Below, piece by piece: positions 47 through 54,877 of a stretch of DNA of 64,000 nucleotides. The translations under genes and the position numbers were made by a program. The notes beneath the pieces are model-generated. The model saw only the letters and a program-made list of their open reading frames with translations. It was not told the DNA's origin and searched no databases. Numbering within the stretch: the stretch's first letter is position 1; each line of letters starts with the position of its first letter. This DNA is from Ignavibacteriota bacterium (GTDB lineage Bacteria > Bacteroidota > Ignavibacteria > Palsa-1295): assembly GCA_963794025.1 (NCBI GenBank), contig CAWCCK010000022.1, forward strand, positions 120,937 through 184,936. The letters run 5' to 3'.

Positions 47-80
47 TATTCTTAATTCTTACTTCTTAATTCTTAATTAC
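47..80. repeat. Tandem array of the motif TTCTTAATTCTTA (attcttaattcttacttcttaattcttaatt).
   Basis: Related arrays lie at 54794-54824 and, reverse-complemented, at 38560-38583. It sits next to the hairpin element at 1-30, the same composite arrangement seen at 29319-29380 and 31316-31420. Confidence 0.5.
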
Positions 81-8525: not shown

Positions 8526-9029
8526 AGACGAAGGGTGGTGAGGATTATTGTATGATTATTCGTTCAGATTATACGAGTAGAAAAGTCCCTGTTTCAACGG
8601 CTATCAATTTCTTAATAAAACGGGTGCTTTACAAAAACGCATTTGTGCCTCATGAACAGTGGCGTTTCCAAGCTATTTTCGCCGTTGTCTTCCAGCAATT
8701 GGTGCCTTTCTCTCTCTCTTGAATGTTCATTTAATGAACTTATGCAATATTATCTCGACTTTTCATGAATTTATGCAATTTCTTTCATGCCGAAACGCAT
8801 GGTTCCCCATCTTTCATCTTTTATCTTTCATCTTTGCCAAAAGGGGTGCCCATCAAAGCACAAGCAACTTACGAAAATAAAATGCCAATGTCAAGCAATT
8901 CCTAAAAATAATCAAAAATAACCAAACATGTGTATAGAGGCGACGTGTGGCAGTTGAGAAGATATGAAGTACCGGCTATCAAGTGATGTTCAAGGAACGT
9001 GGCCGTAATTAAAAGATGCAACTTTTAGT

Positions 9030-18581: not shown

Positions 18582-18588
18582 TAATTAA

Positions 18589-18614
18589 GAATTACGAATT
18601 TCAAATTACGAATT
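18589..18614. repeat. AATTACGAATT tandem motif (2 units).
   Basis: Member of the dispersed AATTCGTAATT family (19308-19340, 31316-31342, 31933-31995, 37633-37657, 51224-51234). Confidence 0.55.
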
Positions 18615-18621
18615 GTAAAAA

Positions 18622-19308
18622 CTAAACGCTGGAAGGCGCGATAAATTTCATTCCAGCTTCTGCGTGTCTCCGCAAAAGCGTAGCTACGCGGTAACGCTCG
18701 GAACCATATTCTCCGGCGAGTGCGTCAAGGATAGCGACGATCGCTTCTGCGCCGATCTCATCGCACCACGCAAGCGGCCCTTTCGGATAATTCGTTCCGA
18801 GCTTCATCGCGGTGTCGATGTCTGCGGCCGTCGCAACAGATTCTTGTACCGCGAAGGCTGCTTCGTTAATTATCATTGCAAGCGTTCGTGGGAACACGCC
18901 AGCGATGGCATCTTTTATCTCTTCACCCGTCTTACCAAGCAATGTGAGAAACTTCCCGACAGTTTCGTTGTAGTGGCTGGGTTCCCCAGCCCGCACTCCG
19001 AAGGGAAACGAATATTCCACGCTTTTCTGTCGAGCAAAATAATGCGGCAGGATGGGCATCCCAATTATGTGCACACCTTTTTTCACAGCATGTTGCGCGG
19101 TGGTGGCGCTCAAGGTTAGCGTATTGGAAATGATGGGAACGTTGGTCTCGAATTTCGAGAGATATTCCGCTTTTTTCACAGGATCGAGAAACGTGAGGCC
19201 GAGCACAAGGTCGGGTTCGCTTGTTACGAGTTTGACATTCTCCATCCCCGAAAAATAGGATGTGAATGACGGAAGATACAGTTCATCCGCGAACAGTTGG
19301 ATTTTCAA
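18622..19308 (-). CDS. 3-hydroxyacyl-CoA dehydrogenase family protein with a divergent N-terminus lacking an obvious GxGxxG motif.
   Basis: The C-terminal segment AMKLGTNYPKGPLAWCDEIG matches the 3HCDH C-terminal domain, and the gene is adjacent to a thiolase. Confidence 0.5.
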   Translation of the reverse strand: MKIQLFADELYLPSFTSYFSGMENVKLVTSEPDLVLGLTFLDPVKKAEYLSKFETNVPIISNTLTLSATTAQHAVKKGVHIIGMPILPHYFARQKSVEYSFPFGVRAGEPSHYNETVGKFLTLLGKTGEEIKDAIAGVFPRTLAMIINEAAFAVQESVATAADIDTAMKLGTNYPKGPLAWCDEIGAEAIVAILDALAGEYGSERYRVATLLRRHAEAGMKFIAPSSV

Positions 19309-19340
19309 AATTCGTAATTCGTAATTTGAAATTCGTAATT
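19308..19340. repeat. AATTCGTAATT tandem motif (3 units).
   Basis: aaattcgtaattcgtaatttgaaattcgtaatt, in the orientation opposite to the 18589 copy. Confidence 0.55.
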
Positions 19341-25439: not shown

Positions 25440-28400
25440 TTGAACCCCAAAACACATTCCAACGAACTCCGCCTGTTCGTCTCCTCGACGTTCCGCGACC
25501 TCATGCCCGAACGCGAGCAGTTGGTGAAAAAAATCTTCCCGCGTATCCGCAAAGAGTGCCGCGAACGTGGCATCGAATTCACCGAAATTGACCTGCGCTG
25601 GGGAATAACCGAGGAAGAATCGCGCACCGGCAAAACCATTCGTATCTGCCTGGAAGAGATCGACCGCTGCCGACCGTATTTCATCGGAATTATCGGCTCG
25701 CGCTACGGATGGGTTCCCGGCATCACCGAGATCGAAAAAGACGAAGAAATGCTGAAAGAATTCCCGTGGCTCCGCGACTATGCCGCCAGCGATAAAAGCA
25801 TTATCGAAATGGAATTCGCGCATGGCGCGATCCTACGGAAAAACGACAGCGCGTTCTTTTATGAACAGGGGAACAACGATTCACAGTACTCAAATGACAA
25901 AATGGACTCAAATGACAAGTCCTTTCAGTCCATTTCGTCCCTTGAGTCCCTTAAACATACCCTTCAATCCACCGGAGTTCCCTATCGCCGCTTCACCGAT
26001 CCCGAAGAATTAGGCGAGCAGGTATTTCAGGACATCCTCACCATTCTCGACCGCGATTTTCCGCAAAAGAAAGAGATGACGCCGCTCGATCACGAACGCG
26101 CCGAGCACGAAGCGTATTCGCGGAACCGGCGGCAATCGTATGTTGCAAATCCGGAGTATTACGAGGCATTTGCAAAATATGTGGAGTCCGATGGCCCGCC
26201 GCTTATTATTTGGGGAAGATCGGGTTTGGGCAAGAGCGCGCTCATGGCGTATCTGGCGCATGAATATCAAACGCGGAACCCGAATGCCTTCGTCGTCCAG
26301 CATTTTATCGGCGCAGCCGAAGGCAGCGATCCCGAAGACGTGATGCGTCAGGTGATGATGGAAATAAAAGAACGCTATCAGCTTGCGGACACGATCCCCA
26401 CCGACGAAAACGCGCTCCGGGAAGAATTCCCAGTCTGGCTGGCGAAAGTAGGAGGGGATGGTCAGGCTGAAAGCACTGACCTACGCGTAGGTCGGCGCTT
26501 CCAGCCCGACACCCTCATCCTTTTGATCGATGCGCTCAACCAGCTTACAGGCATTGCGCCGGAAATGCACTGGCTGCCGGATTTCATTCCCGCGAATGTG
26601 CGCCTCATCGTTTCAACAACAACCGAGAGCCTTCCCCTTGCACAATTACGCGAGCGGAAGTGGAATGAATTGGAACTTCAGCCGCTAACCGAACAGCAGC
26701 GCGAAGCTATCGCGCAGGGTTTCCTGAATCGCTTTCACAAATCGCTGCCGCTGAGCGATCTGCACACGCTTTCGGCAAATCCCAAATCGTCGAGTCCGCT
26801 GTTTTTGCGGACGGTGCTGGAAGAGCTTCGCATTTTCGGGCATCACACTACGCTGCACGAAGAGCTTGAGGATTATTTAGCGAGCGCGGATGAAAGAGAA
26901 CTATTCCAGAAAGTGCTCGCCCGCATGGAGCGCGATCATGGCGAAGACGCCGTTCGTAATGTCATGACCGCCATCTGGGCGTCGCGGCACGGGCTGTCGG
27001 AATCCGAACTGATGCAGATCACCGGCAAGCCGCGCATGGAACTATCGGAACTTATGATCGCGATGGAATACCACCTCATGACCCGCGAAGGGTTCCATAC
27101 CTTCTTCCATAATTATTTGCGCGAAGCGGTGGAGATGCGCTACATGCCGGATGAAGTAGCGCGTAAAGCTGCACACGCGAAAATCGGGGAATATTTCTCC
27201 ACAAGAGAATATGGCCATCGACGAAGAGACGAAGAACCCTGGCAATGGACCGAGGCGGGTGAAAAAGAGAGGCTGATCGGATCGCTTGCCGATCTCGCTA
27301 TGCTAAATCTCTTCATACAAAGTCAGAGGACGCACGAGTTAGTTACCCATTGGGTGCATGCCGATATGGATCGTGTTGCAGGGAGTTATGCCGATTCTTA
27401 TGGCAAGTTACCGGATAATGTTGGCAATGCGGAGCGTCAAGAGCAACTGCGGAACATCGGCAAGATATTGCTGGCCGCTTCAAGGCCAATGGACGCGCAG
27501 GGGTACTTAGAGCGATCGCTTGAATTTACGCGAAAGATTCATGGAATTAAAAGCTTTCAAGCAGCGGAGGCGTTAGAAGATCTGGCTGAATTGCAATACG
27601 AACTTGCCGATTTCAATGGCGCAAAAAACTCACTGCAAGAAGCTGTTTCCATTCACGAAGAAGCGAATAGTTCACCGCTGAAAGTAGCGGCGCGCTATAG
27701 TTCCCTCGCTTCCGTTGCGTACCAGCAGCAACAGTATGAAGAGGGATTGATGTTTTGTAATAGTGCGCTTGCGGTTTTGCCCGAAGGCGGATGGGATGAA
27801 GACACATTGCGCGCTGATATTTTCACCAATATGAGCGGTTTGTATTACAGGCAAAAGAAATTGAATGAGGCAATTTCTGCTGCGGAACAGGCTGTTGAAG
27901 CTCAAAGAAATTTGCATGGCGATTCCGACAATCATACGCTGATCGCCATGAACAATCTCGCATCCATTCTCTCAGCAGCCGGTAGATATGTGGAATCGGA
28001 ACAATTGTTTCTATCCCTCATAGTAACCTTGAAAATGAATTTGGGGAAAACCCACCTTAATGTTGCTAGTGCGCTGAAAGGATTTGCTCTTGCTTTAGAA
28101 CGTGCCAATCAAATACCAAGAGCGAAGGCAGCAATTAAAGAAGCGTTAGCAATATTTCTCAAACATCTTCCATCCGATCATCCAGAACTGCTTTCTGGAC
28201 AATTGGCTGTAGGTGCCTATGAATTTCTGGAAGGCAATTTCAGTGAAGCGGAGAAAATATATCGACAATATGAACCACTTCGCGCCACCATTCTCGGCTT
28301 CACTCATCCCACTGTGCTGCGCGGCCGTGAGCGTTATATTGAAATACTTCTCGCTCTCGGCAAAAATAGAAGAAGCCTCCATGCTCAAATTGGAACTGGA

Positions 28401-28535
28401 GGCTGCTTTATAAAGACGATCAGAATTCAGAATAGAATCAAAACTACAAAAATGCTATCATCTTGTACTGCTGTCCGAAATCATTATAACAATCGAGACC
28501 GAAGCCCCGCCATTGGCAGCGTTCATGCTGGCTGA
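25440..28535 (+). CDS. TIR-like (DUF4062/STIR-type) - STAND P-loop NTPase (NACHT/NB-ARC-like) - TPR-repeat protein. This is a bacterial NLR-like candidate antiphage defence protein.
   Basis: The N-terminus RLFVSSTFRDL...ICLEEIDRC matches the TIR beta-strand and the S.WC..E catalytic-Glu motif. Walker A is GRSGLGKSALMAY and Walker B is TLILLIDALNQ. The C-terminal ~400 aa carry TPR_10/12-like repeats. An in-frame insertion of a palindromic repeat lies at 26460-26510. Confidence 0.7.
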   Translation: MNPKTHSNELRLFVSSTFRDLMPEREQLVKKIFPRIRKECRERGIEFTEIDLRWGITEEESRTGKTIRICLEEIDRCRPYFIGIIGSRYGWVPGITEIEKDEEMLKEFPWLRDYAASDKSIIEMEFAHGAILRKNDSAFFYEQGNNDSQYSNDKMDSNDKSFQSISSLESLKHTLQSTGVPYRRFTDPEELGEQVFQDILTILDRDFPQKKEMTPLDHERAEHEAYSRNRRQSYVANPEYYEAFAKYVESDGPPLIIWGRSGLGKSALMAYLAHEYQTRNPNAFVVQHFIGAAEGSDPEDVMRQVMMEIKERYQLADTIPTDENALREEFPVWLAKVGGDGQAESTDLRVGRRFQPDTLILLIDALNQLTGIAPEMHWLPDFIPANVRLIVSTTTESLPLAQLRERKWNELELQPLTEQQREAIAQGFLNRFHKSLPLSDLHTLSANPKSSSPLFLRTVLEELRIFGHHTTLHEELEDYLASADERELFQKVLARMERDHGEDAVRNVMTAIWASRHGLSESELMQITGKPRMELSELMIAMEYHLMTREGFHTFFHNYLREAVEMRYMPDEVARKAAHAKIGEYFSTREYGHRRRDEEPWQWTEAGEKERLIGSLADLAMLNLFIQSQRTHELVTHWVHADMDRVAGSYADSYGKLPDNVGNAERQEQLRNIGKILLAASRPMDAQGYLERSLEFTRKIHGIKSFQAAEALEDLAELQYELADFNGAKNSLQEAVSIHEEANSSPLKVAARYSSLASVAYQQQQYEEGLMFCNSALAVLPEGGWDEDTLRADIFTNMSGLYYRQKKLNEAISAAEQAVEAQRNLHGDSDNHTLIAMNNLASILSAAGRYVESEQLFLSLIVTLKMNLGKTHLNVASALKGFALALERANQIPRAKAAIKEALAIFLKHLPSDHPELLSGQLAVGAYEFLEGNFSEAEKIYRQYEPLRATILGFTHPTVLRGRERYIEILLALGKNRRSLHAQIGTGGCFIKTIRIQNRIKTTKMLSSCTAVRNHYNNRDRSPAIGSVHAG
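26460..26510. repeat. Inverted dimer of the 27-bp element (GGTCAGGCTGAAAGCACTGACCTACGCG / TAGGTCGGCGCTTCCAGCCCGAC), inserted in-frame inside the NLR-like gene.
   Basis: The right arm is the exact reverse complement of 3676-3702. It encodes GQAESTDLRVGRRFQPD, the same frame as the STDLR peptide from copy 32705-32731. Confidence 0.7.
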
Positions 28536-29185: not shown

Positions 29186-29343
29186 TGTCATCCTGAGCGG
29201 AGCAAAAGTTAGTCCGCCTCAGCGGACTAACTTTTTGCGGAGTCGAAGGATCTCCGGACATTCACCGCACAGTGCAACTCCATGAGATCCTTCGACTCCG
29301 TTTTTCTCTCCTTGCGTCAAGAAAAACTCCGCTCAGGATGACA
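29186..29343. repeat. Structured palindromic element with 17-bp perfect terminal inverted repeats (TGTCATCCTGAGCGGAG ... CTCCGCTCAGGATGACA) and nested internal hairpins.
   Basis: Internal hairpins are GTTAGTCCGCctcaGCGGACTAAC and GGAGTCGAAGGATCTC...GAGATCCTTCGACTCC. It lies 43 nt upstream of the SLOG gene start. Related copies are at 1-30 and 31366-31420. Confidence 0.65.
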
Positions 29344-29385: not shown

Positions 29386-30399
29386 ATGGAAACCACCACA
29401 ACATCGCTCGAACAGATTCCCGTACACGCTGACGCCTCTATCGAATCGCCGGTGGAGCAGTTCATCGACGAGGAGCTGATCCACGCGCACCATCATAGCC
29501 ACCACGCGCTTCCGTGGACGGCGCGTCCTGCGAAGGAATCCGGCCCGCTGCCGCTTGTTATCGGCGTTTCCGGCCACCGCGATCTGCGAGATGAGGACAT
29601 CCCCAAGCTAACGGAAGTGGTGCTTGCCGAGTATGCAACGCTCCGAAAAAATTATCCTTCCACGCCGATCACGCTGCTTTCTGCGCTTGCCAATGGCGCG
29701 GATCGTCTGCTTGCGCATCTGGCGCTTAGTTCTGGAATGCGGCTTGCCGTTGTGCTTCCGATGCCCATCGATCTGTATGAAACGGATTTCGATGCGGCGT
29801 CTCTGATAGAATTTCACGAGTTGATTTCAAAGGCAGAATATTTTTCCGATCTGCCGATCATGCCGGGTCTTACGCGGGAGTTAATTAGCGTGCATGGCAT
29901 CGGCCGCGAGATGCAATACGCGCAAGTGGGCGCGTATATCGCGGCGCACAGCGCCATTCTTATCGCGCTGTGGGATGGAGTGGAACTTAATCTGGTCGGC
30001 GGCACGTCGCAGGTGGTGCGGTTCAAGCTCGATGGTATTCCGGAACCGTACGCGCCGCCGCACAGCGAACTCGACGCGCCGGATAGCGGCCCCGTCTATC
30101 ATATTGTGACGCCGCGTGCTATCAATCCCCATCCGGCACATGCGTTCACGGTGCATCGGTTGTATCCCGCCGGGTTCCGTTCCCATGTCGAAGCCGATAA
30201 AGCGTATGACGACGTGTATTCCCGCATGGAAACGTTTAACGAGGATTCTATCAAGTATTCCGAAGATCTGAAAGAACATTTCCGCGCCAGCAAGGAATAT
30301 ATGTTCCCAGCGCACGCGCATCAGTTGGTGGAGCATCATATCATATCATCGCCGGAAAAAGGAGCATGGTGCAAAAGGGAACCATCATCCGGCCAATAA
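29386..30399 (+). CDS. SLOG-superfamily (DprA/LOG-like Rossmannoid) protein, a putative nucleotide-binding sensor.
   Basis: The core LVIGVSGHRDL...LSALANGADRLLAHLALSSGMRLAVVLPMPIDLYETDF...ILIALWDGVELNLVGGTS follows the DprA/LOG pattern (Gly-rich loop after strand 1, the G..G.D..AH motif, then VVLP...YP-like). Gap to the membrane-protein gene is 13 nt. Confidence 0.55.
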   Translation: METTTTSLEQIPVHADASIESPVEQFIDEELIHAHHHSHHALPWTARPAKESGPLPLVIGVSGHRDLRDEDIPKLTEVVLAEYATLRKNYPSTPITLLSALANGADRLLAHLALSSGMRLAVVLPMPIDLYETDFDAASLIEFHELISKAEYFSDLPIMPGLTRELISVHGIGREMQYAQVGAYIAAHSAILIALWDGVELNLVGGTSQVVRFKLDGIPEPYAPPHSELDAPDSGPVYHIVTPRAINPHPAHAFTVHRLYPAGFRSHVEADKAYDDVYSRMETFNEDSIKYSEDLKEHFRASKEYMFPAHAHQLVEHHIISSPEKGAWCKREPSSGQ

Positions 30400-30412
30400 T
30401 GACCCCAATGAA

Positions 30413-31228
30413 TTGCCGCCATTATTAAAAGAAGATCTCGATTTTTACGCCATCGCCGATGTGCTTTCGCAGCGATTTCAAAAGCGCACCAAAACGACGA
30501 TCCAGTTACTGCTGACCTTCGTATTTTTCGCTGCGCTATTCTTCGAACTCTATTCCGGATTGTTCGAAGAGCCGGCGATGCTCGGGCTGTATCTGGGAAT
30601 GTTTCTTTGTTCGTTCCTCGTCTATTATTGGGCCGAGCGGCATGGTTACCAAACCCGGTACTTGGATTACCGCGCCTTAGCCGAAGGACTTCGTGTGCAA
30701 TTTTTCTGGAAATTAGCCGGAGTCGAAGATTCCGTTGCCGATTTTTACATGCGAAAACAGCGCAGCGAACTCGACTGGATCCGCAACGCCATCCGCGCCT
30801 GCATGATCGGGAACTCACAGCACAGCACCAATAAATTGCTCGATGAAGAAGCCCAGCGCGACCGCCTGAACCTTGTGCTTAAACATTGGGTGGAAGACCA
30901 GGCGAAATACTTTGCGAAAGCTGCCCACCGCGAGCACGAGGAGCTGCATGGCCGCGAGCGGATGATCTCACTGCTTTTTGGCGTCACGCTCGCGCTCGCT
31001 GCGGCGCATGTGATTTTGTTCGGTCATAAAAATGAATTTTTGTTGCTTTTAATTGGCGTGCTTCCCGTTGTTGCCGCGCTCTTGCATAGCTATCTGCAAA
31101 AAAATGCCTTTGCCGAACACAAGCGCCAGTACGACCGCATGAGCGTGTTCTATCATCGCGCAACCGTGCATTTGACTAAACTTATCGGTGAAGATCGCCT
31201 TGTGGATGCTCAGAAAATTCGTTGCTGA
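30413..31228 (+). CDS. Four-TM (2TM - helical linker - 2TM) SLATT-like membrane protein, a predicted effector partner of the SLOG protein.
   Basis: Hydrophobic helices at about residues 30-50, 55-75, 175-195 and 200-220, with a charged helical segment between them. It is co-directional with and 13 nt downstream of the SLOG gene. Confidence 0.5.
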   Translation: MPPLLKEDLDFYAIADVLSQRFQKRTKTTIQLLLTFVFFAALFFELYSGLFEEPAMLGLYLGMFLCSFLVYYWAERHGYQTRYLDYRALAEGLRVQFFWKLAGVEDSVADFYMRKQRSELDWIRNAIRACMIGNSQHSTNKLLDEEAQRDRLNLVLKHWVEDQAKYFAKAAHREHEELHGRERMISLLFGVTLALAAAHVILFGHKNEFLLLLIGVLPVVAALLHSYLQKNAFAEHKRQYDRMSVFYHRATVHLTKLIGEDRLVDAQKIRC

Positions 31229-31315
31229 ATTTGGCCGCGAAGCCCTCGTCGAAAACGGCGATTGGATTCTTTTACACCGCGATAGGCCGCTTGAAGTTCC
31301 CAAAGGAGCGTGAAT

Positions 31316-31342
31316 CAATTACGAATTACGAATTACGAATGG
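31316..31342. repeat. AATTACGAATT tandem motif (3 units).
   Basis: caattacgaattacgaattacgaatg, immediately followed by a hairpin element at 31366. Confidence 0.55.
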
Positions 31343-31365
31343 GGAATTCCGATGCAAGTACAAGT

Positions 31366-31420
31366 GTCATTCTGAACGGAGCACTTCTTCGCGGAGCGAA
31401 GAGGTGCGAAGTGAAGAATC
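31366..31420 (+). repeat. Member of the GTCATyCTGAACGGAGC hairpin-element family (tgtcattctgaacggagcacttcttcgcggagcgaagaggtgcgaagtgaagaatc).
   Basis: It shares the GTCATyCyGArCGGAGC terminus with 29186 and 1-30, and has an internal inverted repeat gcacttcttcgc/gcgaagaggtgc. Confidence 0.6.
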
Positions 31421-31447
31421 TTTTCTCGCTATCAATGAACTCCTTTG

Positions 31448-31888
31448 CTAAGTAGTGGTGAAACCTGTGGGTCGTTTACGAAAAATCAATCGAACCAAAA
31501 GAAAGAACCAATATATAAACCACGCTAACCAAAAAAGGCCGATAATTCCATTCGATTTCGTAGCTCCGGCGGCGATCATCGTTCCCAGAAATATCAGCAC
31601 TTTCCACCAATGAAGATGATGGGTGAAATGCGTGGCGGGAGCCTCAGCATTGGCTTCCGAATGTGGCAGCGCGCTTGACGTTTCATCAGAATGCGTTGCA
31701 TTCGGCGGCGAGATACGTCCTCGGTACGAGATGCCGGTTCCGGGAAGTCCGACGTTGCCATACGTGCCGCGTTTCCCAAGCGTAACGCTCGCGCCGCGCA
31801 CACCCACGGACGTGCTAATACCTGACCTGCTGATGTTCAAGTGAACACCAGGGATAATTTTAATGCGGCGTCTGAATCGAAGACCCAT
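31448..31888 (-). CDS. DUF4236-domain protein with a C-terminal membrane anchor.
   Basis: The N-terminus GLRFRRRIKIIPGVHLNISRSGISTSVGVRGASVTLGKRGTYGNVGLPGTGISY is the characteristic DUF4236 repeat. The C-terminus has two hydrophobic helices. Confidence 0.65.
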   Translation of the reverse strand: MGLRFRRRIKIIPGVHLNISRSGISTSVGVRGASVTLGKRGTYGNVGLPGTGISYRGRISPPNATHSDETSSALPHSEANAEAPATHFTHHLHWWKVLIFLGTMIAAGATKSNGIIGLFWLAWFIYWFFLLVRLIFRKRPTGFTTT

Positions 31889-31932
31889 AGTAAAAGCAAA
31901 ACCGAAGTGATCCGCAATAAATTCAGTCCGAA

Positions 31933-31995
31933 AATTACGAATAAGGGAACACTCAGTCCCTATAATTCGTAATTCGTAACTCGTAATTCGTAATT
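31933..31995. repeat. Inverted arrangement of AATTACGAAT / AATTCGTAATT units (1 + 4 units) around a short hairpin.
   Basis: aaattacgaataagggaacactcagtccctataattcgtaattcgtaactcgtaattcgtaatt. Together with 31316-31342 it brackets the DUF4236 gene. Confidence 0.55.
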
Positions 31996-32001
31996 GCCGT
32001 C

Positions 32002-34833
32002 ATGTTTCCAAAGTTCGCTTTTGGTTTCGGATATCTGATCGTGCTGCTCGCAGCAGGGTTGCTCGCGCTTGGGATTTATTTCAAGTCGGGGACCGTGCCG
32101 GAGTATTCCGGCTCGGCCAGCGTTGCTGGTATTTCGGGAACGATCGATATTGACCGCGATGGATTTGCCATCCCGCATATTCACGCTGCCACGGAGCGCG
32201 ATGCGTATTTCGGCTTGGGTTACGCGGAAGCGCAGGATCGGCTCTTCCAAATGGAATTTGCACGACGTGCGGGTGAGGGAAGGTTATCGGAAGTATTTGG
32301 GAACCGGACGCTGCAAATCGATAGATGGTCGCGCACGATAGGGTTTGCGCGTATCGCCGACCAGATGTGGCTGAAGGCCGGTACGCATACGCGCGAAGTG
32401 CTCACGGCTTTTTCCGGCGGAATCAATGCGTATCTTAAAGATCACCGTAAGCATTTAGGATTTGAATTCGATGCGGTTCAACTTGTTCCGGAAAATTGGC
32501 GTCCGCAGGATTGCCTGATGATCGGGCGGCTGATGTCGTGGGAACTGAACTTCTCTGCGTTGACGGATGCCGCCTTCACCGATTTTTCTCAAGTGCTGGA
32601 TTCAGCGCATTTGCATTCGATCTATCCCGTCTATCCCGACGATGGCGCGACGGTGCTCGGTGGCGCAAATCCGAGCACGTTCGTTTCGAATTATCTGGCG
32701 GGGAGTCGGGCTGGAAGCACCGACCTACGCGAAACAGGCGCACGACCAAAGCCACTTGATACTACGAAGAAGCTACAGGTCATTCCCAAAACTTCGCAGC
32801 GAATGGAAGACCCCGATTCTTCGCGGAACGATTTTGCGTCGCTGTTCCAGCAAGCCAGCGATTTCGATAGCGCGGTTGGCGCGTGTATCGGAGTTGGCTC
32901 CAATGCGTTCGCCATTTCGGGTTCCCACACAGCGGATGGCGCGCCCATTCTCGAAAACGACGCACACTTGCAGCTTCAATCGCCTTCGCGGTGGTATCTT
33001 GCGCATCTTGTAAGCGACGATGGATTCGATGTTGCGGGTTTTCTTATTCCTGGTTTGCCCGTCATTATTTCGGGACGTTCGCACGATCTTTCGTGGGGCA
33101 TCACCAACGGCATGACGGACGAGTGCGATTATTTTATCGAACATCTCGATTCGACTGGAACGAAATATATGCTTCCGAATGGAGCGTCGCAAGCGTTTAC
33201 CGTTATTCACGATACGATTCGCGTGCGTGATTCCGCGAGCAAAGATCAATCGCATGCAGTTCCCATCACGGTACGCATGACGATCCACGGGCCTATTGTG
33301 ACAGGAATGCATCCGCAAGCGATCGAAAGTAAATTTTATAATGATGCTCGCGCAGGCGGCATCCCAAATAATTCCATCTTTTTCCGCGATGGAAAACCCG
33401 TTGCGATGATGTGGAACGGAACCTACGCGCTGACGGACGAGCTATCCGGGTTCCTGGAACTTCCGCGCGCGAAGACCGTCACAGAAGCCAAACGCGGTAT
33501 GTCGGGATTTGCTACGCCGTGCCTGAATCTCTGCTTTGCCGATACGCATGGGAACATTGCATATCAATTTATTGGAAGGATACCGCGCCGGAATGGAACG
33601 GAAGCCCGGCAAACGCTTCCGCGCGATGGAACTAATCCTTCCGACGCATGGATGGGATTTGTGAATATGTCCGAGCTTCCAACGGTAACGAATCCTGCGC
33701 GAGGATATATCGTATCTGCCAATAATCCGCCGTTAAAAGACCGTCCGGTTCCCTACGGAATAAATTGGGAACCCTCATCGCGCGCTGACCGCATTGGGGA
33801 ACTGCTTGCCGAGCGCCCGCACCCAGATGCGGGATATGCGCAGAGCATTCAAACGGATATTATCAGTCCCTACGATCTTCAGCGCGTGCTGCCGTATCTG
33901 CTTGCGCTGTATCCCGATCCCAATCCGCCACGACTCACTGCGGATAGTTCTTCCACGTTTAGGATTGACTCTATGCGGCTCGCATGGAAAGAAGATTCCC
34001 TTTATCGTCATACCTCGATTGGCGATAGCGCGATGAAATATGTCCGGAGGAATGATTCCATTTGGATCGCGGAGCACAAGCTGGCGGACGACCGCTTGCG
34101 AATTAAAACCGAGAACGTCGATCCGTTCACTGCGCAAGTTCTCAATTATCTTCGCAACTGGGATGGCGGAATGCGCGCGGAGGAGATCGCTCCCGCGATC
34201 TATTCCGTGTTTCTAAATCGACTGATCTATAATACTTTTTATGAAGGACTGAGCGGGAACGAAACATCTTCTCAACGGTACGACGAATTTATTTTGCTGC
34301 AGAACATTCCGCTCCAAACGCTGGCGCATTTGTTGCCGGATAGTGGGAATGTATGGTGGCATACCAGCTTCGGCAACAATTATGGGCGCGATTCCATCAT
34401 TCAGCTTTCATTCCATCAATCGCTTCGCATCTTAGCGCAAATTTTTGGTTCCGATATGCGCCAGTGGCAATGGGGGAAATTACACTCGCTCACGATTCGT
34501 CATGCGTTCGATAAAGAAAGCCCGCTCCTTGCCAAATTGGTCGATGTCGAAGGCGGGCCAATGCCCGGCGGGCCGACAACGGTGCTACAAGGTTCCTATT
34601 ATATGTGGAACCCGTATCAAATGCAGGTTGGCCCTTCGATGCGTATGGTCGCGGATATGAAGACCGATGAGCTGCTCGCCGTGCTCCCGACTGGGAACTC
34701 CGAAGCGATCTTCGGCGATCATTACCGCGACATGCTGCCTCTGTATCGAGATGGAACCTTAATTAGAGTTCCGTTAAATGAGCCGACAGAACGTGGCTCC
34801 AATTGGAAACGATTTGAACTGAGACCGGAATAA
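32002..34833 (+). CDS. Penicillin/cephalosporin/AHL acylase family Ntn-hydrolase (943 aa) carrying an in-frame palindromic-repeat insertion.
   Basis: Motifs AYFGLGYAEAQDRLFQMEFARR, the GSNAFAISGSHTADGAPILENDAHL Ser-nucleophile region, and an N-terminal TM/signal. A low-complexity insert lies around 32690-32830. Confidence 0.75.
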   Translation: MFPKFAFGFGYLIVLLAAGLLALGIYFKSGTVPEYSGSASVAGISGTIDIDRDGFAIPHIHAATERDAYFGLGYAEAQDRLFQMEFARRAGEGRLSEVFGNRTLQIDRWSRTIGFARIADQMWLKAGTHTREVLTAFSGGINAYLKDHRKHLGFEFDAVQLVPENWRPQDCLMIGRLMSWELNFSALTDAAFTDFSQVLDSAHLHSIYPVYPDDGATVLGGANPSTFVSNYLAGSRAGSTDLRETGARPKPLDTTKKLQVIPKTSQRMEDPDSSRNDFASLFQQASDFDSAVGACIGVGSNAFAISGSHTADGAPILENDAHLQLQSPSRWYLAHLVSDDGFDVAGFLIPGLPVIISGRSHDLSWGITNGMTDECDYFIEHLDSTGTKYMLPNGASQAFTVIHDTIRVRDSASKDQSHAVPITVRMTIHGPIVTGMHPQAIESKFYNDARAGGIPNNSIFFRDGKPVAMMWNGTYALTDELSGFLELPRAKTVTEAKRGMSGFATPCLNLCFADTHGNIAYQFIGRIPRRNGTEARQTLPRDGTNPSDAWMGFVNMSELPTVTNPARGYIVSANNPPLKDRPVPYGINWEPSSRADRIGELLAERPHPDAGYAQSIQTDIISPYDLQRVLPYLLALYPDPNPPRLTADSSSTFRIDSMRLAWKEDSLYRHTSIGDSAMKYVRRNDSIWIAEHKLADDRLRIKTENVDPFTAQVLNYLRNWDGGMRAEEIAPAIYSVFLNRLIYNTFYEGLSGNETSSQRYDEFILLQNIPLQTLAHLLPDSGNVWWHTSFGNNYGRDSIIQLSFHQSLRILAQIFGSDMRQWQWGKLHSLTIRHAFDKESPLLAKLVDVEGGPMPGGPTTVLQGSYYMWNPYQMQVGPSMRMVADMKTDELLAVLPTGNSEAIFGDHYRDMLPLYRDGTLIRVPLNEPTERGSNWKRFELRPE
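32705..32731 (+). repeat. Copy of the 27-bp element (GTCGGGCTGGAAGCACCGACCTACGCG) inside the acylase CDS, in-frame.
   Basis: Differs from 3676-3702 by one base and encodes SRAGSTDLRE. Confidence 0.7.
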
Positions 34834-36760: not shown

Positions 36761-37647
36761 AGCGCGAATCCAATTCCAAAGCTGACGGACGTGCCGAGAT
36801 CGGGATGACGAACTGCCGCGAAGTCGGCAGTGAAGTTCCCAGTAGCGACACCAATGCCTCCGGAAATTTCTCCGGTTCCCGTATCCCCGCCCGCGCGAAC
36901 GAAGAGGTGGGAATCAATATCATATTCCGCGCCGACGTGAAAAGCAGCGTTATATTCCGCGCTCGATTCGAACGCGGCGTCCAGCGTAAGATCGTTTGTC
37001 GCACGATATGAAAGTCCAAACCATCCCACGCGATCTTCGACGGAGTCGCCATAATTATTATAGAGGCTGACGAGGTGCGTAACGGCGGCGGCAAGTGTAA
37101 GATTTGGGAACAGATCGAAACTTACGCCCAGATCCACGCCGATGTCATCAAGCGGAAGGTACTCGGAACCAAAAGTTTCCTGCGAATAGCGAATACGGAT
37201 GCCGGCCACGGCATGGCGCCTGGTAGAACTATCGCCGTCGTTAACATTCGTTCCGCCAACGGCAAATGTTCTCGATGCCTGGATGCCAAATGTTTGCCAG
37301 GAATAGGCGTCGGTCCATTGATACCGGCTGAGCGACACACCGGCAAGCCAAAGCGGATCGAGCGGAATATCCCCGGCAAATCCGGCGCTCCAGCTTTCGG
37401 GAAGTCCCAACGGCAGTGGCGAAAGCGTTGCGTGCAGATGAGATGACGTATCGACTGGGAGTGCGGGACTCGGAACCCATTCATCGCGCGCATCGGCTAG
37501 ATCGCTGCCACCGATCGCGAGTGAGCGTGGGGAATCGCTCGTAGCGCCGAAAATCTGCGCGTGCGCGATGGGAACTTCGGTCAGCGCAATAAAAAGAAAA
37601 ACGCAGAACAGGACGCGCATGGGACAAGTACAAATTACGAATGACAA
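36757..37647 (-). CDS. Outer-membrane beta-barrel protein (PorP/SprF-like or OMP_b-brl-like).
   Basis: Signal peptide MRVLFCVFLFIALTEVPIAHAQ, alternating hydrophobic beta-strand pattern, about 296 aa, ending GIGFAL. Confidence 0.45.
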   Translation of the reverse strand: MSFVICTCPMRVLFCVFLFIALTEVPIAHAQIFGATSDSPRSLAIGGSDLADARDEWVPSPALPVDTSSHLHATLSPLPLGLPESWSAGFAGDIPLDPLWLAGVSLSRYQWTDAYSWQTFGIQASRTFAVGGTNVNDGDSSTRRHAVAGIRIRYSQETFGSEYLPLDDIGVDLGVSFDLFPNLTLAAAVTHLVSLYNNYGDSVEDRVGWFGLSYRATNDLTLDAAFESSAEYNAAFHVGAEYDIDSHLFVRAGGDTGTGEISGGIGVATGNFTADFAAVRHPDLGTSVSFGIGFAL

Positions 37648-37657
37648 ATTACGAATG
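37633..37657. repeat. AAATTACGAATGA tandem motif (2 units).
   Basis: aaattacgaatgacaaattacgaatga. Confidence 0.5.
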
Positions 37658-37743
37658 ATATTCGCAATTCAAAGTTCTCAAAACTTTTCGGGGACGAAAA
37701 TACGAAGAAAATCATGATGAGATGCAAGAAGCACTATTTTAAC

Positions 37744-38559
37744 TCAGGGAGTCCGAGATGCCTGTAATTCCTTCGTGATCTTTTCCCAATCGACGATCGG
37801 GGTCATCACCTCGGTGTGCATGTGCGTAGCAACGCCGGGAACCGGCGAAAGGCAGAGTGCGCGGCCTGCATAGCGCGTATGACCGATCATGCTTCGCGCA
37901 AAAAGGTTCTTGCTGAGATAGCCATCGTCCGCGCCAGTAGCAGAATGTTCGAGAATGTTTCGGAACTGTTTTAACGTCGAGACCTCGGCTAAGAATGTGA
38001 AGGTAGTGTTCGCGATCTGCCGCCAATGGCAATACTGAGAAACAAAAAGAAACGATGGATCACGTTCGCGCGGTTTGTATCGGTCGGGATAATCGGGCGG
38101 ATGAATGATGAGCGGCATAGTTTTCAGTCCACGCCGATAGTCCATCGGCATGAGGCGTTTCAGGCTTCTGCGGCTTTTTGTCTCAAGAATCGTTTCTCGA
38201 TGCTTGATGAATTCATCGATCCAAAGGAATGCTTCCGGCGTGTGAAGATAATCATCCTCGCAAAAATACACCCAATCGGTTTCAGCGTAGCCGAACGCCA
38301 AGCGTAAGCTCATGCGGATGGATTCATCGTTCCCGAAGGTTCCCTCCGTCATCGTTACATTGTAGGCTTGAAAGAACTGGCGAAGTTCCTCCGAAATGTT
38401 GTCGGCGATGATGTGAATAGTGTGCTCGAAACCTTCCAAGGATTGCACCAGGCTCCGAAAGCAGATCTCAATCGTCTCCCGTTTATTTAATGCGAACGGA
38501 CGCTTAGCGCCATGCACAGAATGCACGGCATCGCACGTTCGGAAAATAATCCTGTACAT
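37744..38559 (-). CDS. Putative glycosyltransferase (GT-A-like).
   Basis: 271 aa with a DxD-like segment YFCEDDYLH. The assignment is tentative. Confidence 0.35.
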   Translation of the reverse strand: MYRIIFRTCDAVHSVHGAKRPFALNKRETIEICFRSLVQSLEGFEHTIHIIADNISEELRQFFQAYNVTMTEGTFGNDESIRMSLRLAFGYAETDWVYFCEDDYLHTPEAFLWIDEFIKHRETILETKSRRSLKRLMPMDYRRGLKTMPLIIHPPDYPDRYKPRERDPSFLFVSQYCHWRQIANTTFTFLAEVSTLKQFRNILEHSATGADDGYLSKNLFARSMIGHTRYAGRALCLSPVPGVATHMHTEVMTPIVDWEKITKELQASRTP

Positions 38560-38583
38560 TTTTAGCTAAGAATGAAGAAGTAA
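38560..38583. repeat. Reverse-complement copy of the TTCTTAATTCTTACTTCTT motif.
   Basis: gaatgaagaagtaagaattaagag. Confidence 0.5.
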
Positions 38584-38609
38584 GAATTAAGAGTAGGGAA
38601 GGTTAATTT

Positions 38610-46206: not shown

Positions 46207-46774
46207 TCCGAACCGGGATTACGCGGATTGGATGGATTACTCGGATTAGAATGTAGGGGCTAATGGCATTAGACCATTCGTCTCCTGCAAAACGGGTCAA
46301 TGCCATTGACCCCTACAAAAAAATAATATATTTTCGGATTTCCCTTGCTTTTGCTCTCAGAATGTTGTAAGTTCGGTAGTACATTAATGGGCACCAATTT
46401 CTATAAGAATAATATAATTATTAGCTTTCTTTATGAACGAGTTCTCTATGAAAAGTAAACTGCGGATACTTGTTGCAACAAATGGCGAAATTAGTTTGGA
46501 AACGAAGGTGCATCGGGAACTCACAAGAAAGAAAAACGGCACCTATTTCTGGGGGAACATGGATTTGGAATGAAGGAGGTTAAAAGAACTATCTTCAGCT
46601 TCAGCGGGTTTACGGCGCGCTATTTGGCATAGGGCGGATGAAGCAGGGGGTCTGTTTATTCGTCCTGCGGGGAGCAAACATTCGGTTGTTACGGGCCAGA
46701 ATTTCCTCGCAACAATGGTTTGGCAGGAGAGCTTCTAACTACTGCAGAACAACAATATTGTCAAAGGCGCAAAA

Positions 46775-54600: not shown

Positions 54601-54793
54601 GCTGTCACCTTTATTGTTCTATAAGAAATAGGTGCTTTTTTTCTTTCTTGTGAGTTCCCGATTTCCAATCGTAACCCTTCGATTCCGAACCAATTTCCAC
54701 ATTCGTTGCAACAAGTATTCATAATTTCCTTTCATAAAGAACTCGTTCCTAAAGAAACCTAATGCCGAATTGTCAATAGATTCATAAAATCCC

Positions 54794-54824
54794 ATTCTTA
54801 ATTCTTACTTTTTAATTCTTAATT
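54794..54824. repeat. TTCTTAATTCTTA tandem array.
   Basis: attcttaattcttactttttaattcttaatt, similar to 47-80. Confidence 0.5.
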
Positions 54825-54877
54825 GATATAGGTGCCCATCATTGCACTACTAATATAATACATTCCAAACCCGAATG

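Follow-up and report, generated by a model that had tools for sequence, protein, structure and literature searches.

Heptamer arrays of the AATTCGT type at gene junctions are probably heptanucleotide simple sequence repeats, with one inverted pair best read as the arms of a split hairpin

Tandem repeats with a heptamer unit have been known in bacteria since 1990. The cyanobacterial short tandemly repeated repetitive (STRR) heptamers were reportedly described in that year by Mazel et al., and the classical STRR units are CCCCAGT, TTGGTCA and CAACAGT. In mycobacteriophages, stoperators and start-associated sequences are short repeated sites at the stop/start junctions of packed genes; these are single 13-14-bp sites that have a fixed sequence or are recognized by a known repressor, and are restricted to particular phage clusters. 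As relayed by two later papers (PMC4679880, PMC4692102), Mrazek et al. (2007) recognized a heptanucleotide 'long SSR' class as the most abundant long simple repeat. Heptamer direct repeats with the unit TAACTGA occur in marine Beggiatoaceae, Cyanobacteria and Bacteroidetes, and control of translation or processing by a trans-acting factor has been proposed for them (MacGregor 2015, PMC4679880). GGGAATC and GGGGAYT heptamers are found in Xanthomonas and Nostoc (Rehm et al. 2015, PMC4692102). Heptamers of this class have precedents for 7-nt indels between strains, for a preference for about four units and for inverted pairs (PMC4679880, PMC4692102). REP and REPIN elements, by comparison, are mobilized by RAYT transposases (Bertels and Rainey 2011, PMC3116915).

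We analyzed a 64-kb stretch of DNA, here called the window, whose source is most likely a Kapabacteria-like bacterium with type IX secretion, from the Bacteroidota/FCB group. The window holds eight (AATTNNN)3-4AATT arrays of 25-32 bp, built mainly on AATTCGT or AATTCTT, which are variants of one thing, as the original prediction had supposed. They follow a common plan, a core and a 3-nt spacer repeated n times plus a final core, here with five AATT cores at 7-bp spacing over 32 bp in total. Arrays of the AATTCKT type are about eight times as numerous as expected by chance. At the sites where tandem arrays had been proposed, Tandem Repeats Finder (TRF) indeed returned arrays of period 7; eight such sites were found (3.4-4.7 copies, 80-100% matches), with AATTCGT, AATTCTT and AAAGATG as the units. 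Searches with AATTCGTAATT at one mismatch or fewer gave 19 matches, where dinucleotide shuffles gave 2.5 ± 1.5 with a maximum of 7, and AATTCKTAATTCKT at two mismatches or fewer gave 29 against 3.3 ± 1.9 expected. None of the eight AATTCKT arrays overlaps a called gene, in a window that is about 84% coding by crude gene calls; rough arithmetic from that fraction puts the probability of eight non-coding placements at about 4e-7 (0.16^8). These counts bear out the proposal of a non-random repeat family at gene junctions.

Positions, strands and unit sequences of the arrays and of the associated features are collected in Table 1. Five of the eight arrays end 0-9 nt 5' of a start codon, four of them (A3, A6, A7 and A8) in the TAA-containing, that is stop-containing, orientation and A4 reversed; two (A1 and A5) start 3-15 nt 3' of a stop codon, and A9 lies in a long leader. 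Shine-Dalgarno (SD)-like motifs precede 9 of 54 crude gene starts, marking a genome poor in such sites, and none precedes the five genes with start-proximal arrays. Arrays within the window can be nearly or wholly alike: A1 and A9 are 97% identical, variant third unit included, and A3 and A4 have an identical 25-mer in common.

Table 1. Arrays and associated features of the window. TRF, Tandem Repeats Finder, with copy numbers.
Feature	Position	Strand	Sequence or evidence	Context
A1	47..78	+	TATTCTT AATTCTT ACTTCTT AATTCTT AATT; TRF 48-78 ATTCTTA x4.4	15 nt past stop of Yip1-like gene 94-834 (-); 25 nt from GTCATTCCGA hairpin element at window edge
Unrelated-unit array	8808..8835	-	(AAAGATG)4; TRF CATCTTT x4	Position equivalent to that of A9, in another copy of the dispersed promoter-like element
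A3	18583..18614	-	AATTCGT AATTTGA AATTCGT AATTCTT AATT (- strand); TRF x4.6	Fills 40-nt spacer between stop of gene 18622-19308 and ATG of thiolase gene 17382-18581; 3' end 1 nt 5' of thiolase ATG
A4	19309..19340	+	AATTCGT AATTCGT AATTTGA AATTCGT AATT; TRF x4.6	Between purE stop (19347) and conserved TTG start (19308) of 3-hydroxyacyl-CoA-dehydrogenase-like (hbd-like) gene; antisense to transcription direction
Stop codon (TGA) of ~660-aa gene	31311..31313	+	blastn and tblastx against L358-L361, junction sequences	
A5, left arm	31317..31348	-	+ strand AATTACG AATTACG AATTACG AATGGGG AATT; TRF 31317-31340 x3.4 (31348 reached if AATGGGG-AATT unit counted)	Begins 3 nt after stop of ~660-aa gene
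Hairpin element, REP-like	31366..31420	+	GTCATTCTGA...GAAGAATC	Between the two arms
DUF4236 gene	31448..31888	-	Pfam PF14020, E = 3e-25	In lineage-specific insert between arms
Second 'left arm plus loop' copy	31933..31962	+	AATTACGAAT AAGGGAACACTCAGTCCCTAT	
A6, right arm	31964..31995	+	AATTCGT AATTCGT AACTCGT AATTCGT AATT; TRF 31963-31995 x4.7	End 6 nt 5' of ATG of penicillin amidase gene 32002-34833
A7	37630..37658	-	14-nt unit CATTCGTAATTTGT, TRF x2.1	End 9 nt 5' of ATG (37620) of 287-aa gene
A8	38567..38595	-	AATTCTT type, decayed; TRF 38567-38592 x3.7	End 7 nt 5' of ATG (38559) of gene 37744-38559
A9	54793..54824	+	CATTCTT AATTCTT ACTTTTT AATTCTT AATT; TRF 54794-54824 x4.4	Within dispersed promoter-like element, ~190 nt upstream of ABC ATPase gene 53929-54600 (-)

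The arrays were then compared with the equivalent junctions of syntenic relatives (loci denoted by L numbers), where some persist with substitutions and others differ in length by 7 or 14 nt, have given way to arrays of another unit or are absent. The junction between purE and the hbd-like gene carries 4.6 units in the window, 3.6 in L122, about 1.4 in L121 and none in L124-L127, which is the variation in unit number anticipated for simple sequence repeats; A3 is missing from the equivalent junction in L121 and L125. At the start of the 287-aa gene, the two 14-nt units of the window compare with 1.5 units in L356, about four units of ACGAATC in L359 and a single unit in L361. Upstream of the amidase ATG, a 32-bp array and its 6-nt linker are kept in the window, L356 and L358, and this array is more conserved than its flanks; the same holds for AATTTCG arrays that follow a homologous dehydrogenase gene in a more distant lineage. 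That amidase-upstream position is occupied by AATTCGT arrays in the window, L356 and L358 but by TTAGCAC(C) arrays in L359 and L360, and the equivalent position in the dispersed element holds (AAAGATG)4 in one copy and (AATTAAG)4.4 in another. At these two homologous positions arrays have been swapped for ones whose unit is unrelated while period and length are equal. Conversely, variant-bearing 25-32-mers recur identically at non-orthologous sites; the 32-mer of A4 is identical to the amidase-upstream array of L358 and occurs in both arms of a pair in L021.

The inverted pair that had been noted around the DUF4236 gene is real, with arms at 31316-31348 and 31964-31996 that are 88% complementary over 33 nt. 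A second pair surrounds gene 18622-19308 (41 nt, 83%, with 25 nt of these at 100%). The ~660-aa gene to the left of the DUF4236 pair is intact in relatives and broken here into 29386-30399, 30413-31228 and a remainder reaching 31313, and the DNA between it and the amidase gene is different in all six of six relatives. In L359 this interval reads TGA-aaa-AATTACGAAT-GGGGAAC..-ATTTCGTAATT, an intact small hairpin. The window contains the left arm plus loop twice, once on each side of the DUF4236 insert; the copy at 31933..31962 matches the L359 loop (AATTACGAAT GGGGAAC...) and includes a small GGGA/TCCC stem, and about 17 nt (AATTACGAAT-GGGGAAY) are duplicated on the two flanks of the insert. In L359 the A5 orthologue is a single AATTACGAAT unit after the equivalent stop codon, while L358 has an orthologous array of 3.9 units, and at the same locus of L358 an inverted pair encloses a gene for a 448-aa secreted protein. 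Across 31150-32100, a promoter scan found no sigma-70-like promoter, and a terminator scan found one weak terminator-like site that did not exceed shuffles. From these junction sequences, the most plausible reading of the DUF4236 pair is that a small ancestral hairpin was split by an insertion into its two arms; the pair is better seen this way than as a transposon or as a functional pair acting on the DUF4236 gene. The ancestral hairpin would have lain between the stop of the ~660-aa gene and the amidase start; its arms would have grown by heptamer steps, and separate lineages would have gained different genes between them. For annotation, the lesson is that a gene bracketed by inverted arrays need not be a mobile element.

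The arrays are not confined to the window. Genome loci with an exact AATTCGT-type 18-mer number more than 120, and viral contigs with it 115; the genome loci belong to Cyanobacteria, Bacteroidota, Acidobacteriota, Chloroflexota, Planctomycetota and others, with Nostocales as the largest single group. Chitinophaga niastensis, C. solisilvae and Nostoc sp. NIES-4103 (loci L014, L104 and L035) are among the carriers. Of the 1108 TRF rows obtained from 120 loci retrieved with the 18-mer, 434 are of period 7; 271 of these represent other units (overlapping rows may describe one array), and dozens of different heptamer units co-occur within genomes that carry AATTCGT arrays. In 267 kb fetched via a protein and not via arrays, TRF gave 28 rows of period 7, 11 of period 6 and 20 of period 8. 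The lengths of period-7 arrays with other units cluster at 24-25, 31-33 (the mode) and 38-40 bp, whereas those of period-6 and period-8 arrays decay monotonically. Counted by AATT cores, 61, 130, 105 and 23 arrays have three, four, five and six cores, respectively, and array length peaks at 4.5 units. Five-core arrays are most variable in the third spacer (36% non-CGT against 21% in the second), an excess that is marginal (p ~0.05 by our estimate); the idea that a variable third unit gives the 32-mer an internal structure was on this account rejected. In the fetched loci, ORF calls contain only 8 of about 200 arrays. Viral contigs contain 115 AATTCGT stretches compared with 41 and 26 for composition-matched heptamers, making AATTCGT 3-4 times commoner, and phage contigs carry 4-10 arrays at tightly packed gene junctions. 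AATTCGT was not found as a repeat unit in the literature that we searched.

One array-like copy proved to be of another kind. The original prediction placed a 1.5-unit copy at a frameshift within a TrxR-fusion gene. The frameshift, in a response-regulator/TrxR fusion gene, is real and the copy adjoins it, but the copy sits at 51205-51221, not at 51224-51234, and codes in frame for a conserved VIRK motif. Deletion of a single A at 51219-51221 yields a gap-free alignment to solved thioredoxin reductases. Insertion of a heptamer was rejected as the cause: a 7-nt deletion also restores the frame, but at the cost of two residues relative to homologues. We treat this copy as a coincidence. Phase variation by contingency repeats was likewise discarded; the arrays are short and imperfect (four units, with variants) and lie outside ORFs, the lone in-gene copy is the coincidental one and its adjacent frameshift is a single-A indel.

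Taken together, these observations lead us to favor, as the probable explanation, heptanucleotide simple sequence repeats of the STRR/TAACTGA type that slip in place and are copied between sites, and that in the inverted pair form the arms of a split hairpin. The arrays have a tandem 7-nt unit, a non-coding location, copy differences in whole units and several units per genome, and they are of the same class as the cyanobacterial STRRs, the GGGAATC-type repeats of Xanthomonas and Nostoc and the TAACTGA repeats of Beggiatoaceae, Cyanobacteria and Bacteroidetes. The data support slippage as well as copying from site to site. We propose that slipped-strand mispairing would create arrays in place from a seed such as AATTACGAATT, which would account for lengths of n+0.5 units. 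Short-patch copying (gene conversion) between sites would keep arrays alike. Arrays would persist only at sites that tolerate a 7-nt indel, and such sites would be found after stop codons, in intercistronic spacers and in the leaders of a genome that rarely uses SD sites. If the arrays have an effect, we speculate that it is most likely that of a sequence-unspecific, A/U-rich, unstructured mRNA spacer or leader of fixed size. Any explanation is constrained by three features: lengths are quantized at n+0.5 units with a mode of 4.5 (~32 bp), homologous positions retain period and length but not unit sequence, and variant-bearing copies are identical at non-orthologous sites. Pure slippage predicts neither the sharp 4.5-unit mode nor the steep drop beyond five cores, and it leaves unpredicted the preference for exactly 7 nt and the excess of AATTCGT in viral contigs. 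Furthermore, conservation above that of the flanks, in the amidase-upstream and the AATTTCG arrays, could reflect selection for function, and a view of the arrays as neutral sequence is hard to reconcile with phage contigs that carry several at their junctions.

An alternative that we consider unlikely is that the arrays are cis-regulatory sites in mRNA or DNA, where a trans-acting regulator such as ribosomal protein S1 or a Csp-like protein would read the unit near starts and control translation or processing. A recurring protein-binding site had been among the original suggestions. The five start-proximal arrays of the window, four in a shared orientation, point in this direction; yet arrays occur in both orientations and, over the multi-phylum loci, they adjoin gene ends (160) more often than gene starts (100), with only 4 of 98 lying between divergent genes. 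That no SD-like motif precedes the array-preceded genes would also fit, but the genome is SD-poor throughout and the lack is therefore not special to these genes. Equal array length and linker upstream of the amidase in three genomes, an identical 32-mer at differing loci of differing genomes, a characteristic size of about 32 bp and the junction arrays of phage contigs are all consistent with a recognized site, as is the like behavior of the published analogue (PMC4679880). Against this, many unrelated units coexist within one genome, close relatives have no array at equivalent junctions, and the unit is not conserved at the homologous positions where AATTCGT is exchanged for TTAGCAC(C) or AAAGATG for AATTAAG.

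Several more specific functions were screened. AATTCGT arrays present TAA in every frame, but provision of stops in all three frames was rejected, given the mixed orientation, the finding that in the fetched loci stop-abutting arrays most often lie in the stop-free orientation and the existence of related AATTTCG arrays with no stop codon on either strand. An origin of the arrays by stalling beside hairpins was rejected as well: the 40-nt flanks of 175 arrays (350 flanks) did not exceed 684 other non-coding windows in predicted structure (Mann-Whitney p = 0.97). The window contained no tRNA gene and, over its whole length, no Rfam match at gathering score; permissive scans of two array-bearing leaders returned no known RNA. 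Homologues of gene 53929-54600 were detected by tblastx in five fetched array loci, but this recurrence is not meaningful because the product is an ABC transporter ATPase, and the gene was discarded as an array-linked one.

Less likely again is that the arrays are the ends or footprints of mobile DNA, such as MITE- or REPIN-like inverted repeats, or portable homology for the exchange of gene cassettes, with pairs marking inserts. Pairs do bracket variable content, the DUF4236 gene and a hairpin element in the window and the 448-aa gene in L358, but most arrays are unpaired, and the DNA between paired arrays is unrelated from pair to pair. Gene 37744-38559, which is bordered by A8, is an insertion specific to this genome on comparison with relatives, whereas the gene between A3 and A4 occupies its ancestral position, since L121 and L125 have equal gene order with no arrays. 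Three features would suit such ends: the ~17-nt duplication that flanks the DUF4236 insert, the long perfect palindromes of Chitinophaga and other genomes, whose outer arms are arrays and some of which recur within one genome, and the outward bias of pairs at most 150 nt apart (24 outward, 10 inward, 16 direct); at 151-1600 nt, however, the bias is gone (7 outward, 5 inward, 7 direct). Orthologous arrays differ in how many units they have, not in whether an entire element is there, and neither a transposase nor a RAYT-type gene is found among the ~38 window proteins scanned against Pfam. A MITE proper was rejected: what the pairs enclose is unrelated (the hbd-like gene in one, DUF4236 in the other), the hbd-like gene is in its ancestral position, and the sole duplication seen is that of the ~17 nt. 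The suggested association with GTCATYCYGA hairpin elements holds only in part. Within the window, three of four intergenic elements are accompanied by an array, or a stretch resembling one, in the same orientation and at a fixed short distance of 21-27 nt beyond the GTCAT end. In the fetched loci only one of eight further elements (L262) has an array, 11 nt outside the GTCAT end, and a composite repeat would describe a minority of copies and not the rest.

With no greater confidence, we also entertain the possibility that period-7 arrays of about 32 bp have a dedicated, unit-independent process of making or upkeep, or are a selected 'ruler' or spacer of fixed size in leaders and intercistronic gaps, shared across phyla and phages. 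The sharp 4.5-unit mode, the replacement of units and the recurrence of AATTCGT across phyla point to such a process or ruler and go beyond what plain slippage predicts; its scope may take in the Bacteroidota/FCB group, Cyanobacteria, Chloroflexota, Acidobacteriota, Planctomycetota and their phages. Finally, chance matches of A/T-rich k-mers are already refuted: A/T content is indeed higher between genes than within them, and the copy at 51205-51221 is coincidental, but the shuffles, the strict 7-nt phasing across 25-32 bp, the arrays of relatives at equivalent junctions and the 18-mer's recurrence in genomes and viral contigs exclude this reading.

With heptanucleotide simple sequence repeats as the preferred reading, the arrays can be set against the known systems. 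Like REP and REPIN elements, they are short extragenic repeats at gene ends that are depleted from promoter-only regions and often form inverted doublets capable of hairpins; in contrast to those elements, a single array is not palindromic and is predicted to be unstructured, has a 7-nt tandem unit in copies of varying number and contains no GTAG/CGTC tag. The way AATTCGT arrays fill gene junctions in phage contigs resembles the mycobacteriophage sites, which are not tandem heptamers. Likeness to the GGGAATC-type repeats extends to the intergenic location, the prevalence of about four units, the paired inverted copies and the strong variation of length and sequence at equivalent junctions of close species. 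The units of those repeats, however, are G-rich and able to form G-quadruplexes; AATTCGT cannot do so, and quadruplex-based explanations are therefore not transferable. With the STRRs and the 'long SSR' class, the latter as relayed by later papers, the arrays share non-coding tandem heptamers, many units per genome, an over-representation of period 7 and polymerase slippage as the proposed origin, and Nostocales head the AATTCGT loci; the classical STRR units are nevertheless unlike AATTCGT, and the source here is not a cyanobacterium.

The TAACTGA repeats offer a many-sided comparison. Both have a 7-nt unit in 2-6 copies, often broken by a related variant unit, and both are nearly all intergenic. 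The stop-containing orientation directly 5' of starts that have no ribosome-binding site, as in the TAACTGA repeats, is seen in four of the eight arrays here (A3, A6, A7 and A8), in a genome that is SD-poor throughout. The two also share strain differences in 7-nt steps, a patchy spread across phyla that includes Bacteroidetes and Cyanobacteria, and relatives that keep the gene neighborhood and may have no arrays. The arrays here differ in their unit, AATTCGT/AATTCTT, the TAACTGA type occurring once among the fetched loci, and in their mixed orientation, with four forward and one reverse before a start, two after a stop and one in a long leader. Inverted pairs, of which a single one was reported for TAACTGA, are common here, and the taxa are broader, taking in Acidobacteriota, Chloroflexota, Planctomycetota and phage contigs. 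To the known heptamer class, these arrays thus add the AATTCGT unit, whose spread over phyla and phage contigs is unusually broad.

The predicted tandem arrays are real, with Tandem Repeats Finder (TRF) calling period-7 repeats at these sites (table). In register, a well-preserved array has the form (AATTNNN)4AATT, with five AATT cores at 7 bp spacing and 32 bp in total, and the 3-nt spacer between cores is mostly CGT or CTT. Because they share this layout and core register and differ in the spacer, AATTCGT and AATTCTT arrays form one family, as had been proposed. The unit AATTCGTAATT with at most one mismatch occurs 19 times in the window against 2.5 ± 1.5 expected from dinucleotide shuffles, and the 14-mer AATTCKTAATTCKT with at most two mismatches 29 times against 3.3 expected. 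None of the eight arrays overlaps a called gene, with about 84% of the window coding by crude gene calls. Searches of the window found no tRNA genes and no Rfam families at gathering score. Shine-Dalgarno sites are seldom used in the source genome, an SD-like motif being present at 9 of 54 crude gene starts. The TTG start downstream of A4 is kept in seven relatives.

Repeat arrays and dispersed elements of the window, with TRF calls and gene context
Feature	Position	TRF call	Strand (arrays: reading of transcribed strand)	Context
Array A1	47-78	48-78	complement of AATTCKT	15 nt past a stop codon
Array A3	18583-18614	18583-18614	AATTCKT	occupies 40-nt spacer from 3-hydroxyacyl-CoA-dehydrogenase-like stop to thiolase ATG; ends 1 nt before ATG
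Array A4	19309-19340	19309-19340	complement of AATTCKT	occupies spacer from purE stop to TTG start of dehydrogenase-like gene
Array A5	31317-31348	31317-31340	complement of AATTCKT	starts 3 nt past stop codon (31311-31313) of ~660-aa gene
Array A6	31964-31995	31963-31995	AATTCKT	ends 6 nt upstream of penicillin amidase ATG
Array A7	37630-37658	37630-37658, as 14-nt unit	AATTCKT	ends 9 nt upstream of 287-aa gene start codon
Array A8	38567-38595	38567-38592	AATTCKT	ends 7 nt upstream of start codon of gene 37744-38559
Array A9	54793-54824	54794-54824	complement of AATTCKT	within long leader
Unrelated heptamer array		8808-8835
Promoter-like element	3732-3784		+
Promoter-like element	8909-8841		-
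Promoter-like element	46340-46398		+
Promoter-like element	54880-54828		-
GTCATYCTGAGCGGAG...CGAAGGATC element	12-21
GTCATYCTGAGCGGAG...CGAAGGATC element	29187-29252
GTCATYCTGAGCGGAG...CGAAGGATC element	29280-29342
GTCATYCTGAGCGGAG...CGAAGGATC element	31366-31420
GTCGGGCTGGAAGCGCCGACCTACGCG repeat	3671-3702			intergenic
GTCGGGCTGGAAGCGCCGACCTACGCG repeat	26450-26521			palindromic doublet inside NACHT/TPR gene 25440-28535
GTCGGGCTGGAAGCGCCGACCTACGCG repeat	32700-32731			variable linker of amidase gene

The most informative evidence on the arrays comes from orthologous junctions in the loci retrieved for comparison (L-numbers). Between purE and the dehydrogenase-like gene the number of units is 4.6 in the window and 3.6 in L122, bearing out the suggestion that unit number varies as in simple sequence repeats; L121 (82% identical at the protein level) carries just AATACAAATT, and four more distant relatives have no array. 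At the dehydrogenase-like/thiolase junction the array is confined to the window, and L121 and L125 have a common, unrelated spacer of 24-33 nt. Upstream of the amidase, the arrays of the window (AATTCGT AATTCGT AACTCGT AATTCGT AATT), L356 (AATTCGT AATTTGT CATTCGT AATTCGT CATT) and L358 (AATTCGT AATTCGT AATTTGA AATTCGT AATT) are each 32 bp long, with a 6-nt linker separating them from the ATG; L357 and L361 have no array there. At the start of the 287-aa gene a 14-nt unit is present twice in the window, as 1.5 units in L356 and once in L361, and L359 has about four ACGAATC units. In most contigs of a more distant lineage, AATTTCG/AATGTCG arrays of 3.3-5.1 units lie directly behind the stop codon of the dehydrogenase homologue, and their immediate flanks are not conserved. 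The arrays are thus inherited, resized by whole units, sometimes lost and sometimes swapped for an array of a different unit.

Some arrays also share variants across sites. A1 and A9 match at 97% identity and have the variant third unit in common (ACTTCTT / ACTTTTT), and A3 and A4 have a common 25-mer at 100% that includes the variant AATTTGA. The whole A4 32-mer recurs at non-orthologous sites: it is identical to the amidase-upstream array of L358, lies within each arm of an L021 pair and is partly present in L081. Since independent slippage would not recreate the same variant unit at the same place, copies appear to have been transferred or homogenised between sites, presumably by short-patch recombination.

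The period outlasts the unit. A dispersed promoter-like element, without a match in Rfam, has four copies in the window, each with a near-consensus sigma-70-type promoter (TTGACA, 17 nt, TATATT or TAAGTT) and then a conserved GTGCnnTGATGGGCACC, and each aimed at a gene 200-300 nt downstream (aldehyde dehydrogenase, ECF sigma factor, gene 46806-47429 and an ABC ATPase). In three copies a heptamer array follows GTGCnnTGATGGGCACC; the same position holds (AAAGATG)4, (AATTAAG)4.4, about two units and a decayed remnant in the four copies. A second instance is the amidase leader, where L359 (5830-5915) and L360 (~5960-5995) carry a TTAGCAC(C) tandem repeat of period 7-8 in place of the AATTCGT array. 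At homologous positions, then, period and length are kept and unit sequence is not, which counts against a sequence-specific binding site and speaks either for a generating process that does not depend on sequence or for selection that holds a spacer to a given size and character. The promoter-like element is extended by an inverted repeat (46374-46560 / 54615-54860; ~190-250 nt, 81-88% identity, 8 kb apart) that gives two different genes similar upstream regions.

Nor are the arrays restricted to the window. The exact 18-mer AATTCGTAATTCGTAATT was found at at least 120 loci of the species-genome collection; the matches listed include many Nostocales and other cyanobacteria, Chitinophaga, Saprospiraceae, Bacteroidales, Flavobacteriia, Ignavibacteria, Acidobacteriota (Pyrinomonadaceae), Chloroflexota, Planctomycetota and scattered others, among them two candidate-phyla-radiation genomes and one archaeon. 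Viral contigs carry the 18-mer in 115 stretches, compared with 41 and 26 for two composition-matched control heptamers, indicating that the AATTCGT unit is favoured ~3-4-fold, yet heptamer arrays per se are common. Some phage contigs have 4-10 AATTCGT arrays in the gaps of tightly packed co-directional genes. Period 7 accounts for 434 of 1108 TRF rows in the 120 loci fetched by the 18-mer, 271 of them with a unit different from the query; in 267 kb retrieved via a protein, not via arrays, periods 7, 6 and 8 gave 28, 11 and 20 rows. Arrays of non-searched units cluster at 24-25, 31-33 and 38-40 bp, or n+0.5 units, with a clear mode at 31-33 bp, unlike periods 6 and 8, whose lengths decay monotonically; AATT-core arrays with 3, 4, 5 and 6 cores number 61, 130, 105 and 23. 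The half unit would be the expected product of repeated duplication from a core-spacer-core seed, a process that leaves the 4.5-unit mode unaccounted for.

Gene context at these loci, which were chosen for bearing arrays, rests on crude ORF calls: arrays are almost never within ORFs and seldom between divergent genes, the 98 classifiable positions comprising 4 between divergent, 27 between convergent and 67 between co-directional genes. The commonest layout is an array abutting a stop codon, with AATTACG on the gene's strand (median distance 13.5 nt). Array pairs up to 150 nt apart are biased to AATTACG...CGTAATT (24 outward, 10 inward, 16 direct), and in many cases, as in Chitinophaga, the two arrays form the outer arms of a long perfect palindrome; pairs 151-1600 nt apart, a spacing like that of the window's two pairs, have no orientation bias (7, 5 and 7).

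The original prediction had A5 and A6 bracketing the DUF4236 gene (31448-31888, -) as an inverted pair. The DNA from the ~660-aa gene to the amidase gene varies in content between genomes, holding the GTCATTCTGA hairpin element and DUF4236 in the window, 93 nt empty of genes in L359, a 448-aa secreted-protein gene in L358, a 344-aa gene in L360, a channel and a permease gene in L361, and three called genes plus an uncalled DUF4236 homologue in L357. The L356 contig, without a homologue of the ~660-aa gene, has a 227-aa secretion-tail gene and a 76-aa ORF upstream of the amidase instead. The L359 spacer reads TGA-aaa-AATTACGAAT-GGGGAACAGAGTGCCGATCC-ATTTCGTAATTCC, a small hairpin with arms of 1-1.5 heptamer units. 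Its left arm and loop beginning are present twice in the window, at the end of A5 (AATTACGAAT-GGGGAAT..CCGATGC) and at 31933-31950 directly before A6 (AATTACGAAT-AAGGGAAC), which indicates that A5 and A6 are expanded arms of this ancestral hairpin, parted by inserted DNA that has a duplicated stretch of ~17 nt or more on its flanks. L358 has the same architecture with another gene inside, and with two relatives behind it this account is well supported; the bracketing would thus be explained by split hairpin arms, and a transposon with array ends is not needed. Such hairpins or arrays might still be preferred insertion or recombination sites.

The proposed association with GTCATYCYGA hairpin elements held in part, for three of four elements in the window and one of eight elsewhere. 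The GTCATYCTGAGCGGAG...CGAAGGATC elements each have a different extra hairpin nested in the loop, and two of them are paired in inverted orientation (29187/29342). The hairpin-forming repeat GTCGGGCTGGAAGCGCCGACCTACGCG (29-32 nt, 91-100% identity) codes for GSRAGSTDLR in the amidase gene; as a relative, P0005, has this peptide too, this is a case of a REP-like element that a coding sequence tolerates in frame. In AATTAMG orientation, A5, A2, A9, A8, A1 and L359 5830-5850 seem to tend to run straight into purine-rich GGGGAA, AGGGAA or GAGGAA, with an ATG 8-9 nt on and a mini-ORF of 7-8 codons in three cases. Gene 37744-38559 (271 aa, without a Pfam match) was found in the source genome only; in four syntenic relatives the next gene after the 281-aa gene is prolyl-tRNA synthetase, and the left breakpoint of the insert falls within a terminator-like hairpin, GGGACGAAAATACGAAGAAAATCGTCCC, that is intact in L356. 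Gene 44926-46206 (BNR/Sortilin-like) contains seven diverged copies of a ~135-nt coding repeat (45044-45869). Two window proteins have a type IX secretion sorting domain, and the named homologues of the amidase are from Candidatus Kapabacteria, which makes a Kapabacteria-like member of the Bacteroidota/FCB group the most likely source.

The array copy noted at the frameshift site of the TrxR (response-regulator/thioredoxin-reductase) fusion gene, at 51205-51221, does adjoin a genuine frameshift. It codes for the conserved VIRK motif, and once one A is deleted from AAAGAAAG (extra A at 51219-51221) the product again aligns without gaps to solved thioredoxin reductases. Taken with the fragmented ~660-aa gene, the frameshift looks like homopolymer error or decay and not like a heptamer event. 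These are the two frameshift-interrupted genes of the window (50016-51675, and 29386-31313 in three ORFs), the latter undivided in relatives. Similar fragmentation is present in L358. Both interruptions may be homopolymer errors of long-read assemblies, not biology.

We conclude with high confidence that the arrays are heptamer simple sequence repeats, and the comparisons support slippage together with copying between sites as the probable mechanism of their origin and change. As to their role, our best guess is either that of an A/U-rich spacer or leader without sequence specificity, or none. A more interesting reading, which we consider unlikely, is kept alive by the 4.5-unit mode, the recurrence of one unit across phyla and the abundance in phage contigs. 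The window arrays lack the features that define REP/REPIN, MITE or phase-variation repeats. The class itself is already known: in many bacteria no other long simple repeats are as abundant as heptanucleotides, and polymerase slippage has been put forward (Mrazek 2007, summarised in PMC4679880 and PMC4692102). The AATTCGT array sequence was not found in the literature searched, and we therefore regard these arrays as a new addition to the class. Its described members include the GGGAATC arrays of Xanthomonas, mostly of four units and with inverted pairs (PMC4692102), and the TAACTGA repeats of Beggiatoaceae, Cyanobacteria and Bacteroidetes, which are intergenic, have 2-6 copies, immediately precede start codons that have no ribosome-binding site and differ by 7-nt steps between strains (PMC4679880).
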